In this document: positions 3,131 to 36,348 of the stretch, piece after piece
Position numbering within the stretch: position 1 is the stretch's first letter
How the letters are laid out: the number at the start of each line of letters is the position of its first letter
From: Escherichia phage EcWhh-1
Length of the DNA stretch: 64,000 bases
Reading direction: 5' to 3' (one strand)
Sequence record: MH791409.1
Made by a program: the position numbers and the translations under genes
The notes under the pieces: generated by a model
The model's database searches: none
Seen by the model: only the letters and a program-made list of their open reading frames with translations
What the model was told of the DNA's origin: nothing

Positions 3131-3442
3131 TTATTTACTAGCGCCATTGATAATTTCCCAAATCTGTTTACGCGTAGTTTCCCACATAACTCTAACGATT
3201 TCGTCAGTAGTCGGTTGACGGTAAATACCACGTAATTTAATTATAGCATATTTGTAAGCTTCGAAATTGTTTTCGAGAACAGCGCCCTGAGCATGTGTAT
3301 TAAGACGCTTAATTTCACGGGCATTCTTTTTAAGAATTTTGGCAGCTTGAGAAGCGGCTTCTTTAGCATTATTCTCTTCTAAACGCTTCTGGGCTTCTTC
3401 AATTTGCTCTTCGGTCAATTGAGAAATGTCGGTGCTTTGCAT
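3131..3442 (-). CDS. Hypothetical protein, 103 aa
   Basis: ORF downstream of gene 55 occupying the position where T4 has 47.1/a-gt; no motif recognised. Confidence 0.5.
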   Translation of the reverse strand: MQSTDISQLTEEQIEEAQKRLEENNAKEAASQAAKILKKNAREIKRLNTHAQGAVLENNFEAYKYAIIKLRGIYRQPTTDEIVRVMWETTRKQIWEIINGASK

Positions 3443-33435: not shown

Positions 33436-34053
33436 TTATTTACGGGTCTTTTCGAACTGAGCGGCGTCACCTGCAAGGCGGCGGGCTTGACGAAGTTTGT
33501 TATCAATTTCTTCGTGCATAGGCTGGGTATACTTAAGGCCTTCAACCGTCAGGTAAAGACGATAGAGGTCCGGGGTATCTAGGTTGTTAATGTGTTGACC
33601 ATTACGAAGAACATTGAATTCTCGAACAAGTTGTTTAGTTTCGGATTCGATTTCCGACACTAAAGAAGCCAGCTGGTTATATTTTTTAACAATAGTGCTG
33701 GTGTCGAACTTGATTTTAGGTTTAGGAGCTTCTTTTACAGGCTCTGCTTTAGGTGTAGGTTTCGGTGCTGCAACTTTGGTCTGAGCCGCGGGTTTAGAAA
33801 CAGGAGCTTTAGCTGGTTTAGCAGGCTTAGTAGAGCCACCGGCTACGATATCTTTAAAAGCTTTGGAAGCTTTGTAATATTCTTTCTGGCTACTAGTATC
33901 AAAACCATACATATCATAAACGTTTTTAAAGAACTCGGTAGTGGTTTTAGTCCCTGAAATTTTATCATAAGCAGCTTGCCACATATCTTTAGTCATGCGC
34001 ACGCTGGCTTCATTCAGAACGCTTTCGTTCAAAAATTCATTGTAAGTTTTCAT
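33436..34053 (-). CDS. Internal protein III-like capsid-targeted protein (CTS MKTYNEFLNE), 205 aa
   Basis: CTS leader; Lys/Ala/Pro-rich central region (KPAKPAKAPVSKPAAQTKVAAPKPTPKAEPVKEAPKPK) like T4 IPIII; late promoter upstream. Confidence 0.65.
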   Translation of the reverse strand: MKTYNEFLNESVLNEASVRMTKDMWQAAYDKISGTKTTTEFFKNVYDMYGFDTSSQKEYYKASKAFKDIVAGGSTKPAKPAKAPVSKPAAQTKVAAPKPTPKAEPVKEAPKPKIKFDTSTIVKKYNQLASLVSEIESETKQLVREFNVLRNGQHINNLDTPDLYRLYLTVEGLKYTQPMHEEIDNKLRQARRLAGDAAQFEKTRK

Positions 34054-34081
34054 TATTGTTTCCTGTGTTAATTAACTTATC

Positions 34082-34089
34082 TATTTATA
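34082..34089 (-). promoter_or_regulatory. Late promoter TATAAATA
   Basis: exact TATAAATA on minus strand about 28 nt upstream of ATG 34053. Confidence 0.5.
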
Positions 34090-34117
34090 CAAAAAGGCCC
34101 AACCTTTCGGAAGGGCC
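34090..34117 (-). terminator. Rho-independent terminator (GGCCC...GGGCC stem + T-tract)
   Basis: minus strand GGCCCTTCCGAAAGGTTGGGCCTTTTTG; identical hairpin at 34712-34740. Confidence 0.55.
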
Positions 34118-34122
34118 GTAAA

Positions 34123-34677
34123 TCAGTTCTTGTAGAACCGGAACGGGTTCACGTGGAAGGCCAACATAGCTTTAGGGATTTTACGAGACAAAAGACTCTT
34201 AAGCTTCCAGCCACAGTACACGCGAAGGTAAAATGTGATTCCGCCGACCTTAAGATAAGGAACTGAAGCAAATACACCCCAGGCGTCATCATTCCACATC
34301 CACAACCAACCATGGTGAGCTTTATCAGGAGAACCTGATTCTACGTCAGGATTACCACGATAATGGAATTCCGAGCTACAATCACGGCCTAGTTTATGAT
34401 AAGCAAAGTTATAAGCTTTATTTCGCCATAGCCAAGCTACTCTCTGGAGATAAACACCACCAGGCATTTTCCTGATTTTAGCCCAACGTTTAATATGACC
34501 TTTATCGCCGTCAATTGGATTATCGTATGTCATCATCCAATCAAAACCGTATGGCAATTTACCAGTCTTTTTATTATGAAAAGGAACCACAAAAGGCGCA
34601 AGGATAACGGCTAGAACCATAGAGATAAAATCTAGTGGGACCAACAGAATCCAACTCAAATATTTTAAAAGTTTCAT
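34123..34677 (-). CDS. Late-expressed membrane protein, 184 aa
   Basis: N-terminal hydrophobic helices; SD AGGAAATAAT + ATG; late promoter upstream. Confidence 0.6.
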   Translation of the reverse strand: MKLLKYLSWILLVPLDFISMVLAVILAPFVVPFHNKKTGKLPYGFDWMMTYDNPIDGDKGHIKRWAKIRKMPGGVYLQRVAWLWRNKAYNFAYHKLGRDCSSEFHYRGNPDVESGSPDKAHHGWLWMWNDDAWGVFASVPYLKVGGITFYLRVYCGWKLKSLLSRKIPKAMLAFHVNPFRFYKN

Positions 34678-34703
34678 ATTATTTCCTAAGTTAGTTTACT
34701 GTA

Positions 34704-34711
34704 TATTTATA
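34704..34711 (-). promoter_or_regulatory. Late promoter TATAAATA
   Basis: exact TATAAATA on minus strand 27 nt upstream of ATG 34677. Confidence 0.5.
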
Positions 34712-34740
34712 CAAAAAAGGCCCAACCTTTCGGAAGGGCC
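34712..34740 (-). terminator. Rho-independent terminator (same hairpin as 34090-34117) + T6
   Basis: minus strand GGCCCTTCCGAAAGGTTGGGCCTTTTTTGT. Confidence 0.55.
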
Positions 34741-34745
34741 TTTCA

Positions 34746-34976
34746 CCTAGGGTAACCTTGTCGGGGTTCCACCTGCTAGGCAAGTGTTCGGTGCGCCGTT
34801 TCAGCTGTGAGATAAGGGACTTTAAGAGGAACTCATGTACGCCTTAAAGTCGGGTCTTATTCAGGGAACTTCAGTCCGACGACTTACCGGTAGCGACCCG
34901 GTTTCTTGTTTGTTGCGCCGGTGAATGCTGGTAATCAGTCTTCATACGACGGCTTGACTATATAATAGTCTTCATT
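34746..34976 (-). ncRNA. Candidate stable small RNA region downstream of tRNA-Arg (position of T4 RNA C/RNA D)
   Basis: about 230 nt with no ORF, between tRNA 3' end and a terminator, with local hairpins; identity unverified. Confidence 0.25.
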
Positions 34977-35051
34977 TGGTATCCCGCCCTGGGATCGAAC
35001 CAGGACCGCAAACTTAGAAGGATCGTATGCTATCCATTACACCAGCGGGAC
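34977..35051 (-). tRNA. tRNA-Arg (anticodon UCU), CCA encoded
   Basis: minus strand GTCCCGCTGGTGTAATGGATAGCATACGATCCTTCTAAGTTTGCGGTCCTGGTTCGATCCCAGGGCGGGATACCA; 7-bp acceptor stem, T-loop TTCGATC, anticodon loop CTTCTAA. Confidence 0.85.
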
Positions 35052-35673
35052 GTAATTTATTTAAAAGACAAGACAAATCGGAAATCTCATCTTTTTCTAA
35101 AACTATCAAATTTTCTAAAGCTTTCCATTTACAAAGGTCTCTATCTCTTTTATATCCTTTGACTTCTATATAAAAATCATAAGTGGGTAAATAAAAATCA
35201 GGAAAATAGAGATGTTCTGAACCTTCCCATTCGTAAGGAATTGGCTTTATTTCATTAGTATATTTGATATTGTGTTCTTTTAAAAACTTAGCAACTTTTA
35301 ATTCCCAGGTCCCTTTAAATTTAAATCCGTCAAACTCGTATGTTTTTACTCGACCAGAAACATTAGAAGCAGAATATGAATCAGGATTATCAAGAACAGC
35401 TTGCCGCATTCTTTTAGAATGTGCTTCTTTGCGTTCATTAGACCATACATATCCTGTATTGGCTTTTCTAAGTTTTTCTCTGGTTTTATCAGAAACATTT
35501 ATTTCTTTACCTAGTTCTTTGGCTTTTGTAAATTGATTGACGCCTTTAAGACCAAAACGAGGGTTATTAGGGCCGCTCATATCCAATCCATTTGGGTTAG
35601 ATTTGCACCGTTTTTCATGTTGCTTTAGTGAATTTAAGTTTTTACATTCTTTAGAACAATATTGGCAAAGCAT
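35014..35673 (-). CDS. Zinc-finger PD-(D/E)xK-type nuclease (putative free-standing homing-endonuclease-like gene)
   Basis: N-terminal CQYCSKEC...HEKRC finger; C-terminal FPDFYLPTYDFYIEVKG resembles PDF...E-x-K nuclease core; start at ATG 35673 with SD GGAGA; 3' end overlaps tRNA-Arg by 38 nt. Confidence 0.6.
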   Translation of the reverse strand: MLCQYCSKECKNLNSLKQHEKRCKSNPNGLDMSGPNNPRFGLKGVNQFTKAKELGKEINVSDKTREKLRKANTGYVWSNERKEAHSKRMRQAVLDNPDSYSASNVSGRVKTYEFDGFKFKGTWELKVAKFLKEHNIKYTNEIKPIPYEWEGSEHLYFPDFYLPTYDFYIEVKGYKRDRDLCKWKALENLIVLEKDEISDLSCLLNKLRPAGVMDSIRSF

Positions 35674-35678
35674 AATTT

Positions 35679-35715
35679 TCTCCATGAATTTTATATAGAT
35701 ATTTATTCATGGAGA
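35679..35715 (-). promoter_or_regulatory. RBS-sequestering hairpin with late-promoter-like AATAAATA in its loop
   Basis: 11-bp inverted repeat TCTCCATGAAT/ATTCATGGAGA; 3' arm contains the GGAGA SD of the nuclease gene. Confidence 0.4.
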
Positions 35716-35731
35716 AGTTGACTGCTCTACC

Positions 35732-35808
35732 TAATCAAAGTTGGTGACCCAGACCAGATTTGAACTGGTAACCTTTCCCTTATGAGGGGACTGCTGCTAA
35801 CCATTGAG
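35732..35808 (-). tRNA. tRNA with CAU anticodon (Met or lysidine-type Ile), CCA encoded
   Basis: minus strand GGCCCTGTAGCTCAATGGTTAGCAGCAGTCCCCTCATAAGGGAAAGGTTACCAGTTCAAATCTGGTCTGGGTCACCA; T-arm ACCAG-TTCAAAT-CTGGT, anticodon loop CTCATAA; D-arm and acceptor have mismatches. Confidence 0.65.
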
Positions 35809-35825
35809 CTACAGGGCCTTAATTC

Positions 35826-36245
35826 TTAACTAGACCAATTCCAACCTTCGGAAGGGCCATCATAGTGTACACAAATATCAGGCGAAATATTAAAATTGGT
35901 ACCATCCGAAGAAAAAACACCTAACTTTTTACCAAACTCGCTGAAACAGAACTGTTCACCGCCTGGTGACCAAACATCTTCAAATAAAACAGTGAATAGC
36001 CATCCGGCAATTAAATCGGCATCAAATTCTGTTACGCCGGAACACATTTCATATAACTCGTCATCACAGACTGTAGCCACAATATGAGCTGAGTGTTCTT
36101 TAGATTTTAACCAAATACGGATTAAATTCCCGTCAAAACAATTATAGTTAATTTCAGATGGTTGGCAGTTATAAAATACTTCTGTAGCGATTTCTGGATT
36201 TTCCCAGGTTTCGCTGTTAAAATCGATAAGAATTGGAGTAATCAT
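35826..36245 (-). CDS. Hypothetical protein, 139 aa
   Basis: SD GAGGAAAAT + ATG. Confidence 0.5.
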   Translation of the reverse strand: MITPILIDFNSETWENPEIATEVFYNCQPSEINYNCFDGNLIRIWLKSKEHSAHIVATVCDDELYEMCSGVTEFDADLIAGWLFTVLFEDVWSPGGEQFCFSEFGKKLGVFSSDGTNFNISPDICVHYDGPSEGWNWSS

Positions 36246-36348
36246 ATTTTCCTCATTAGTTGATTAATTCTATTATGAAAGGCTCTTTGAGGGAAGAACC
36301 TTTGGTAATAGAGGGTATTAATGATAGAGTAATAATATCACATAATTC

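Follow-up and report, generated by a model that had tools for sequence, protein, structure and literature searches.

Why does a T4-type phage carry, wedged between two intact tRNA genes, a nuclease gene that is rare among its close relatives? The DNA analysed here, a 64,000-nucleotide (nt) stretch of Escherichia phage EcWhh-1 (sequence record MH791409.1; hereafter the window), belongs to a JS98-like Dhakavirus, a T4-type phage, and its minus strand holds a 219-amino-acid (aa) open reading frame (ORF) in the intergenic space between tRNA(CAU) and tRNA-Arg(UCU), outside any intron or intein. Homing endonucleases fall into a handful of structural families, and T4-type phages are the model for the free-standing ones; to our knowledge, those of T4-type phages have so far all been GIY-YIG, HNH or Vsr-like Hef proteins. 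We consider it very likely that this ORF represents a so far undescribed family of free-standing homing-type endonucleases, in which a PD..ExK core akin to that of T7 endonuclease I would be combined with NUMOD3-like helices and a CCHC zinc finger.

What kind of protein is encoded? Two in-frame ATG codons could serve as the start. Translation from the first (ORF 35685..35014) would give 223 aa and from the second, at 35673, 219 aa; a Shine-Dalgarno sequence, GGAGA (35683-35679), is properly spaced before the second, and the annotation of phage IME341 gives the identical 219-aa product length. An alignment of 33 homologs was used to identify conserved residues. The N-terminal finger reads C3-x2-C6...H19-x3-C23, with C3, C6 and H19 invariant and C23 at least 90% conserved; family members give C2H2-type Pfam matches in this region, and the AlphaFold model of the ORF product, with an overall confidence score (pLDDT) of 82.8, exceeds 90 over the finger. 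The model places helices at aa 62-72 and 79-95, within the predicted NUMOD3-like region, and NUMOD3 (PF07460), a DNA-binding motif typical of homing endonucleases, is matched by six of the 33 members. Farther along lies the nuclease motif FPDFYLPTYDFYIEVKG (aa 157-173); E124, P158-D159 and E170-V-K172 are invariant in the alignment, which also contains the motifs NQxTKA and SNVSGR, and the predicted core has the alpha-beta-beta-beta-alpha-beta fold of the PD-(D/E)xK superfamily.

Judged by profile comparison, this core is homologous to T7 endonuclease I: the family profile matches the T7 enzyme (1m0d) at E = 3.7e-6 with the E/PD/ExK catalytic residues aligned, and Phage_endo_I (PF05367) is matched by 21 of the 33 members. 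PHROGs searches returned phrog_15137 'endonuclease' (E = 1.5e-39) and phrog_9019 'Holliday junction resolvase' (E = 3.6e-11), together with weak cross-matches to 'homing endonuclease' families, all outside the catalytic domains of those families. As modelled, the core is structurally closest to the homing endonuclease I-Bth0305I. Neither the window protein nor the 33 family members contain a GIY-YIG or HNH Pfam domain. The EDxHD (Vsr-type) motif was not found in the family alignment, where the core has an invariant Lys and no conserved His, and PF11645, the I-Ssp6803I family, was matched neither by the window protein at E <= 1 nor by the 33 members at E <= 0.01. An NCBIfam search gave nothing useful, and the nuclease ORF has no paralog within the window. 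The first-pass annotation, made from the letters of the window, had proposed a 219-aa ORF between these two tRNA genes, a C-x2-C...H-x3-C finger, a core reminiscent of T7 endonuclease I and a protein different from GIY-YIG and HNH types; the ORF list, ARAGORN, the alignment and the profile searches uphold every one of these features, its description having left unstated that the gene lies on the minus strand.

How mobile is the gene? Among 568 phage records that share the flanks, only four carry a copy with more than 95% identity: IME341 (two records of one genome), HEMP5 and F25. UGJNEcP3 has the same two tRNAs 5 nt apart, an empty site that gives the boundary of the insertion, and JS98 has a different Met-Asn-Arg tRNA set and orf137 at the locus. 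By a blastn segment map, the window is 97-99% identical to JS98 except in one mosaic patch (Table 1). Tequatrovirus F25 is 96.9% identical to the window over exactly 34975-35823, that is, tRNA-Arg, ORF and tRNA(CAU), and at most 84% identical in the aligned segments outside it. The window tRNA(CAU) is 100% identical to T4 tRNA-Ile (over 35745-35820) and its tRNA-Arg(UCU) is 100% identical to T4 tRNA-Arg (over 34972-35059). The same tRNA-Ile/tRNA-Arg slot is occupied in T4 by segB. The sequences of F25 and T4 agree as far as ...TATTTTGA at one junction and again from AATTAC-GTCCC at the opposite one, which indicates that one nuclease gene took the place of the other. On these alignments, the nuclease gene is exchanged between phage genera as a tRNA-nuclease-tRNA cassette with sharp boundaries. 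The marks of a homing gene are thus found here: sporadic presence with conserved flanks, an empty site and recombination boundaries centred on the gene. The analogy to segB drawn in the first-pass annotation turns out to be stronger than it had stated, the two genes sharing exactly one slot, and its proposal of a mobile nuclease in the tRNA cluster gains support: none of the three contrary findings that it had named in advance (a match to a non-nuclease family, universal presence with conserved flanks, an unconserved hairpin) was made.

Directly upstream of the nuclease-flanking tRNA(CAU) of F25 (locus L004, ~2297-2369), a homolog of T4 tRNA-Thr has lost 15 nt (GTAATGAGGATGTCG), the loss beginning immediately past anticodon position 34. 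This one case may be a scar of cleavage and repair at an anticodon loop.

Does the association with tRNA genes extend beyond the window? The family is large: at E <= 1e-5 it counts 466 metagenomic proteins, and an exhaustive profile search returned 321 clusters at E <= 1e-30, the source names listed being 'hypothetical protein' only. Roughly 42 of 48 loci surveyed in phage records and IMG/VR have a tRNA within 250 nt, and six of six additional metagenomic loci adjoin one. Many family ORFs lack their own stop codon and run into the adjoining tRNA, where they terminate, and at locus L014 an intact tRNA overlaps the ORF end. Three arrangements occur. In the first, the ORF interrupts tRNA(CAU) at its anticodon, as it does in no fewer than eight lineages (CkP1, the Apostate group, AsFcp_1, PX29/AsFcp_2 and loci L081, L088, L089 and L090); the tRNA of L089 was not called by ARAGORN, and its halves were read by eye. 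Nine Lazarusvirus records have exactly 666 nt inserted between CTCAT and AATCC of tRNA(CAU), and more than 25 sister phages keep this gene intact as empty alleles. Aeromonas phages carry the insert between CTCA and TAACCGC, compared with an intact CTCATAA in Aeh1. These empty alleles identify the Aeromonas target as tRNA(CAU); the labels tRNA-Val(CAC), tRNA-Ile(aat) and tRNA-Arg(cct) given by the intron mode of ARAGORN were rejected as artefacts of intron-boundary placement. In the second and commonest arrangement, a remnant of a tRNA 5' half is followed by the ORF and then by an intact tRNA(CAU). The Kuttervirus site is filled in nine records, and most of the 190 other matching records keep the flanks alone; relative to PLL1 (locus L087), PhaxI (locus L012, 556-1363) has an 808-base-pair (bp) cassette, consisting of the ORF and a different, intact tRNA(CAU) of its own, in place of positions 28-70 of the resident tRNA(CAU). 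In the third, the ORF directly follows an intact tRNA. Taken as a whole, and as far as these gene arrangements tell, the family is specialised on tRNA(CAU) genes.

The split loci also record the turnover of the element. AsFcp_1 and PX29 are 98.6% identical in the flank and just 68-76% identical in the insert, and the ORFs of PX29 (L009) and AsFcp_2 (L086) are broken by several frameshifts where the AsFcp_1 copy is intact; these are therefore divergent alleles at one site, with some copies decaying. The conservation of the tRNA halves in this pair was considered as a sign of functional split tRNAs and rejected, as the neighbouring flank is itself 98.6% identical and the halves are conserved because the genomes are close. 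The existing annotation of PX29 calls just a fragment of the gene ('endonuclease', 921-1229). At 3176-3285 of the CkP1 locus (L005), directly after the split tRNA, the intron mode of ARAGORN calls a second tRNA-Met with a 22-nt 'intron', possibly a spurious call or else a tRNA that is degenerate or unusual. Distant homologs of about 25% identity in AR9, PBS1 and Staphylococcus jumbo phages are annotated as 'endonuclease fused to N-terminal Zn finger domain'.

Where does the window copy, which lies between intact tRNAs, belong in this series? The insert begins at ~35737, and close behind it lies TTAGGTAGAGCAGTCAACT, which looks like the 3' part of a D-arm and the 5' strand of an anticodon stem. 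This stretch is missing from the empty site of UGJNEcP3 and is similar to the 5' half of other tRNA(CAU) genes, whether split or intact, such as TAGAGCGTCCAACTCAT at L088 and TAGAGCAGTCGACTCAT in PLL1. Because such a remnant is still carried, we infer that the tRNA half came in with the element and that the window copy is a descendant of a tRNA(CAU)-splitting copy. The other end of the gene has its own history. The first-pass annotation had noted that the ORF overlaps tRNA-Arg by 38 nt, as it does (35014-35051), with the TAA stop of the ORF inside the anticodon loop. The last residues, RPAGVMDSIRSF, are read from tRNA-Arg sequence and appear non-native: the alignment of homologs reaches only to about aa 204, and residues 211-219 form a disordered tail in the model (pLDDT <50). 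In L080, a metagenomic homolog of 85% aa identity in the same slot, the ORF has its own TAA 18 nt before tRNA-Arg, and the window lacks ~26 nt relative to it. Because L080 keeps this stop, the overlap is explained as a secondary deletion of the native stop codon, and on the same grounds we rejected, for the window, the idea that a stop codon in the anticodon loop is a designed feature.

Is expression of the gene controlled as in T4 homing endonuclease genes? The first-pass annotation had pointed to an 11-bp inverted repeat able to pair the GGAGA, with a late-promoter-like sequence in the loop. The repeat, TCTCCATGAAT/ATTCATGGAGA, is real and even extends to 12 bp. Together with an outer 9-bp stem over the start codon, the leader is predicted to fold at -28.6 kcal/mol with a z-score of -5.6, a stability reached by 0 of 200 shuffles, and the Shine-Dalgarno sequence is fully paired; a second prediction for the read-through transcript gives -29.2 kcal/mol, z -5.4. 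As predicted, then, read-through transcripts hold their Shine-Dalgarno sequence within a stable fold, as in T4-type late control. A transcript beginning at the loop is, by the same prediction, unstructured (-3.4 kcal/mol, z +0.8). An outer stem, GGTAGAGCA/TGCTTTGCC, appears in both the minimum-free-energy and the centroid structures and also in L004, L013 and L080, although its significance is uncertain because these other carriers are closely related. The promoter-like sequence is present as well, as AATAAATA, which agrees with the T4 late-promoter consensus TATAAATA at seven of eight positions; it does not sit wholly in the loop, as had been claimed, but spans the border between 5' arm and loop, and a start ~6 nt downstream of it would fall in the loop.

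These features recur across the family. The sequence NATAAATA is kept in 12 of the 12 hairpins examined, and the exact consensus TATAAATA stands in the same place in six of them. Of 42 non-redundant leaders, 15 have the heptamer ATAAATA in the 90 nt upstream, as against 3.7% of background windows, and 13 of these 15 occurrences are at -23 to -36. Covariation was measured on the 12 leaders with a start-proximal hairpin by a duplex test of each arm with its own and with other partners, which replaced a column count on the MAFFT alignment because three sequences were shifted by one position in both arms. In each of the 12, the 5' arm forms its most stable duplex with the 3' arm of the same leader (-13.7 versus -4.5 kcal/mol; 0 of 20000 permutations), and by this test the hairpin arms covary across the family even as their sequences differ. 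The question of hairpin conservation that the first-pass annotation had raised is thereby answered, with the NATAAATA motif retained. The combination of hairpin and late promoter that it had likened to T4 homing endonuclease genes is documented for I-TevI, I-TevII, I-TevIII, segB and mobE (PMC2988022).

We propose the following course of events. In a mixed infection, the enzyme would cut the tRNA region of a related phage without the gene, probably in or near the anticodon arm of the tRNA(CAU) gene, by analogy with its relatives. Recombinational repair would then copy the nuclease gene into the broken genome together with the flanking tRNA genes, which would act as homology arms. Expression would be delayed, with the Shine-Dalgarno sequence and start codon locked in the hairpin in read-through transcripts of the tRNA cluster, until the late-promoter-like AATAAATA within the hairpin gave late transcripts that lack the 5' arm and could be translated. 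The window copy itself would have come from an ancestor that split tRNA(CAU) and later lost its stop codon by a small deletion. The steps that we infer in this scheme are the cutting of DNA, the site at which it is cut, homing as such and translation confined to the late phase.

Several points weigh against it. The Phage_endo_I (PF05367) score of the window protein, 24.3 bits, is below the gathering threshold of 29.1, the match spanning just profile positions 14-72 of 149, and a Foldseek search of the AlphaFold model against the PDB gave no match with E <= 0.001. The 12 leaders of the covariation test were picked for a visible hairpin; distant and Ackermannviridae members often lack the promoter-like motif; the window has AATAAATA in place of the canonical TATAAATA, which is not enriched within the window. 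The carrier genome keeps intact tRNA(CAU) and tRNA-Arg genes and would need some means of escaping cleavage by its own enzyme. The searched literature holds no biochemical or genetic evidence on cleavage, specificity or homing for any family member.

Is the gene selfish, or does it serve the phage? A domesticated nuclease could exclude the tRNA-region markers of competitors, or could counter defence systems by causing the tRNA locus to rearrange or amplify. We hold this to be unlikely, if worth weighing seriously; it overlaps the explanation preferred here, because the same enzyme and the same cut are involved and the selective rationale alone differs. The ratio of nonsynonymous to synonymous substitution rates (dN/dS) is 0.05-0.19 against five homologs, indicating strong purifying selection and therefore a functional gene, as a domesticated nuclease would be. 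The Kuttervirus cassette brings its own intact tRNA(CAU), the window nuclease travels with T4-type tRNA-Ile and tRNA-Arg, and SegB homologs are often tRNA-associated, SegB promoting the amplification of tRNA anti-defence loci (PMC13096335). Domestication fits poorly with the rarity of the gene in close relatives (4 of 568 records, 9 of ~35 Lazarusvirus, 9 of 199 matching Kuttervirus-type records), with the decaying copies, and with the fact that in at least eight lineages a tRNA gene has been destroyed, not added.

Could the split tRNAs instead be interrupted by introns? A group I intron was rejected for the window element and for the split tRNAs, since broad and focused Rfam scans came back empty: no Rfam match to such an intron was obtained in the window or in the split-tRNA inserts, and a scan focused on 34950-35850 found no ribozyme. 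Focused rescans of the Apostate, CkP1 and AsFcp_1 inserts, made because the multi-locus scan had missed a real intron at L092, again found no RF00028 at the sensitivity that detected that intron. The inserts are 666-692 nt long, of which ~630-640 nt are ORF, and there is therefore scant room for a ribozyme. L092 is a case of its own: at 163-482 it has a tRNA(CAU) with an ORF-less group I intron in the anticodon loop (intron 219-414; RF00028, 51.8 bits, E = 1.8e-12), and a nuclease homolog of 52% identity begins 18 nt after this tRNA. A further reading takes the ORF-only inserts of Apostate, CkP1, AsFcp_1 and metagenomic relatives not as dead ends that disrupt the gene but as tRNA introns that have no ribozyme and depend on protein, with the window copy as an escaped derivative. 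The 666-692 nt would be excised from the pre-tRNA, perhaps by the PD-(D/E)xK protein or a host RNase, and the halves rejoined either by two phage enzymes, polynucleotide kinase-phosphatase and RNA ligase 1, or by the RtcB of the host. We find this highly improbable; if true, it would provide a bacterial or phage counterpart of archaeal and eukaryotic tRNA splicing.

Scarcely any weight falls on the idea of a housekeeping Holliday-junction resolvase of the T7 endonuclease I type, acting on branched DNA in replication or packaging. Its appeal lies in the homologous catalytic core, in the phrog_9019 match cited above and in records, those of Apostate and F25 among them, with such annotations as 'endonuclease I' and 'putative endodeoxyribonuclease I, Holliday junction resolvase'. 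For the resolution of junctions, T4-type phages already have gp49 (endonuclease VII), which counts against a second such enzyme, as do the sporadic distribution with clean empty sites in sister phages, the pseudogenised copies, the insertion at tRNA genes throughout the survey, and a zinc finger and NUMOD3-type sequence-reading modules that a structure-specific resolvase would not need. An enzyme acting at the RNA level, either a processing or splicing nuclease for interrupted tRNAs or a weapon against host tRNAs, would suit the near-exclusive link to tRNA genes and anticodon loops and the lack of a detectable ribozyme in the inserts, but we judge it no less improbable than a resolvase. The metal-dependent E/D/ExK residues belong to DNA nucleases, T7 endonuclease I among them, where a splicing endonuclease would have Tyr/His/Lys; a gene that is present in some genomes and absent from others, has divergent alleles at a single site and is exchanged as a cassette speaks of DNA-level mobility; and the window copy lies outside any tRNA.

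What does a homing-type endonuclease in this slot add to present knowledge? Free-standing homing endonucleases with this mode of regulation are already known, as is a nuclease, segB, in this very slot. The nuclease lineage, its systematic link to tRNA(CAU), the ribozyme-free, base-precise interruption of anticodon loops and the replacement of segB appear to be new; we found no prior description of the family or of ORF-split phage tRNA genes in the searched literature, which misses some journals. The family would form another large tRNA-specialised lineage, with its T7-endonuclease-I-type core joined to a zinc finger and NUMOD3. In the replacement of segB, nature offers a clear example of selfish nucleases, unrelated to each other, in competition for a single site, and the cassettes suggest that tRNA genes serve as portable homology arms between phage genera. 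The split genes would explain why tRNA(CAU) is missing, 'pseudo' or mis-typed in many phage annotations, and the family bears on the recent finding that tRNA-cluster nucleases shape the anti-defence tRNA repertoires of phages; the split genes also raise the question of whether the tRNAs split in their anticodon loops without a ribozyme are lost or rescued. The family may, finally, offer new long-target nucleases for engineering.

Table 1. Features of the nuclease locus in the window (positions in MH791409.1 stretch, 1 to 64,000)
Feature	Position	Strand	Basis or remark
Nuclease ORF	35014..35673	-	219 aa + TAA stop; ORF list
CCHC zinc finger, N-terminal, aa 3-23	35605..35667	-	C3, C6, H19 invariant; C23 >=90%
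NUMOD3-like helical DNA-binding repeats (predicted), aa ~61-95	35389..35493	-	model helices and Pfam
PD-(D/E)xK nuclease core, aa 118-190, with E124, D159, E170, K172	35104..35322	-	
C-terminal tail, apparently non-native, aa 208-219, RPAGVMDSIRSF	35014..35052	-	read from tRNA-Arg sequence
Putative translational-control hairpin: 5' arm 35716-35705, loop 35704-35690, 3' arm 35689-35678	35678..35716	-	contains GGAGA (35683-35679)
Predicted outer 9-bp stem, GGTAGAGCA (35731-35723) / TGCTTTGCC (35672-35664)	35664..35731	-	over start codon region
Late-promoter-like AATAAATA, 7/8 match to TATAAATA	35700..35707	-	sequence
Putative remnant of tRNA 5' half (D-arm 3' part, anticodon-stem 5' strand), TTAGGTAGAGCAGTCAACT	35716..35734	-	
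tRNA(CAU)	35742..35818	-	ARAGORN; Rfam tRNA 53.9 bits; upstream flank, outer edge of exchanged cassette
tRNA-Arg(UCU)	34977..35051	-	ARAGORN; Rfam tRNA 48.8 bits; downstream flank, outer edge of exchanged cassette
Mosaic patch absent from JS98 backbone: tRNA-Arg, nuclease gene, tRNA(CAU), 139-aa ORF	34913..36268	.	blastn segment map

The neighbourhood of the gene has features of its own. Inside the mosaic patch, a 139-aa ORF of unknown function (35826-36245, minus strand; phrog_25544) has no Pfam or NCBIfam match; it also stands beside the nuclease gene in IME341 and L080, and JS98 and UGJNEcP3 have a different, 88-aa ORF there. Downstream of tRNA-Arg, 34708-34975 (minus strand) is 81-91% identical, in two segments, to the T4 stable-RNA (rnaD/rnaC) region; no Rfam family was found in it, the only match being a sub-threshold one to BjrC68 at 34708-34793. 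Two intergenic stretches, ~34029-34117 and ~34656-34740, are alike, and each has an exact TATAAATA on the minus strand (34082-34089 and 34704-34711); the second also has a G+C-rich hairpin (GGCCC..TTCGG..GGGCC), and a related hairpin motif lies at ~35838-35862. The two stretches look like reused terminator and late-promoter cassettes.

Among known systems, SegB of T4 shares the genetic setting. It lies in the same tRNA-Ile(CAU)/tRNA-Arg(UCU) slot, segB ending 5 nt before tRNA-Arg, and it too has a ribosome-binding-site hairpin with a predicted late promoter (PMC2988022). SegB is a characterised GIY-YIG homing endonuclease that recognises tRNA-gene sequence and spreads with neighbouring tRNA genes (PMC2330249). 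Its fold is unrelated to the PD..ExK core of the window protein, however, and its DNA-binding modules are C-terminal where those of the window protein would be N-terminal; SegB recognises the T-psi-C arm, whereas the insertion points of the window family lie in the anticodon loop; and SegB has been studied by experiment, whereas the window protein is known from sequence alone. I-Ssp6803I, the PD-(D/E)xK homing endonuclease of the cyanobacterial tRNA-fMet group I intron, shares with the window family the nuclease superfamily and the CAU anticodon. Its target reportedly lies in the anticodon region. It is a small, single-domain protein within a self-splicing intron, whereas the window family has a zinc finger and NUMOD3 extension and is free-standing or inserted without a ribozyme. 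The I-Ssp6803I family is among those listed in PMC3424549; beyond the missing PF11645 match, PDB searches likewise gave no sequence-level relation to the window family.

I-Bth0305I and the EDxHD group, which includes the T-even Hef proteins, resemble the window protein in being phage-borne, with an N-terminal NUMOD DNA-binding region and a C-terminal nuclease (PMC3239194). They differ in having the EDxHD motif (Vsr-like, with His and no Lys; PMC3239194) instead of the classical E...PD...ExK. I-Bth0305I is encoded by an intron of recA, has NUMOD2 in place of the zinc finger and NUMOD3 of the window family, and gave no sequence-profile match with the window family profile. In collaborative homing, a free-standing endonuclease lies beside an intron-interrupted target, as with F-CphI and psbA of cyanophages. 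L092 alone, a single metagenomic locus, resembles this arrangement; the window itself has no intron. T7 endonuclease I, finally, is the closest relative of the catalytic core by sequence, with the equivalents of E20, D55, E65 and K67 aligned. It is a stand-alone, domain-swapped dimeric resolvase encoded by a conserved core gene and has no sequence-specific DNA-binding extension, whereas the window protein has an N-terminal region of ~115 aa that would read DNA and is encoded by what behaves as a mobile gene.

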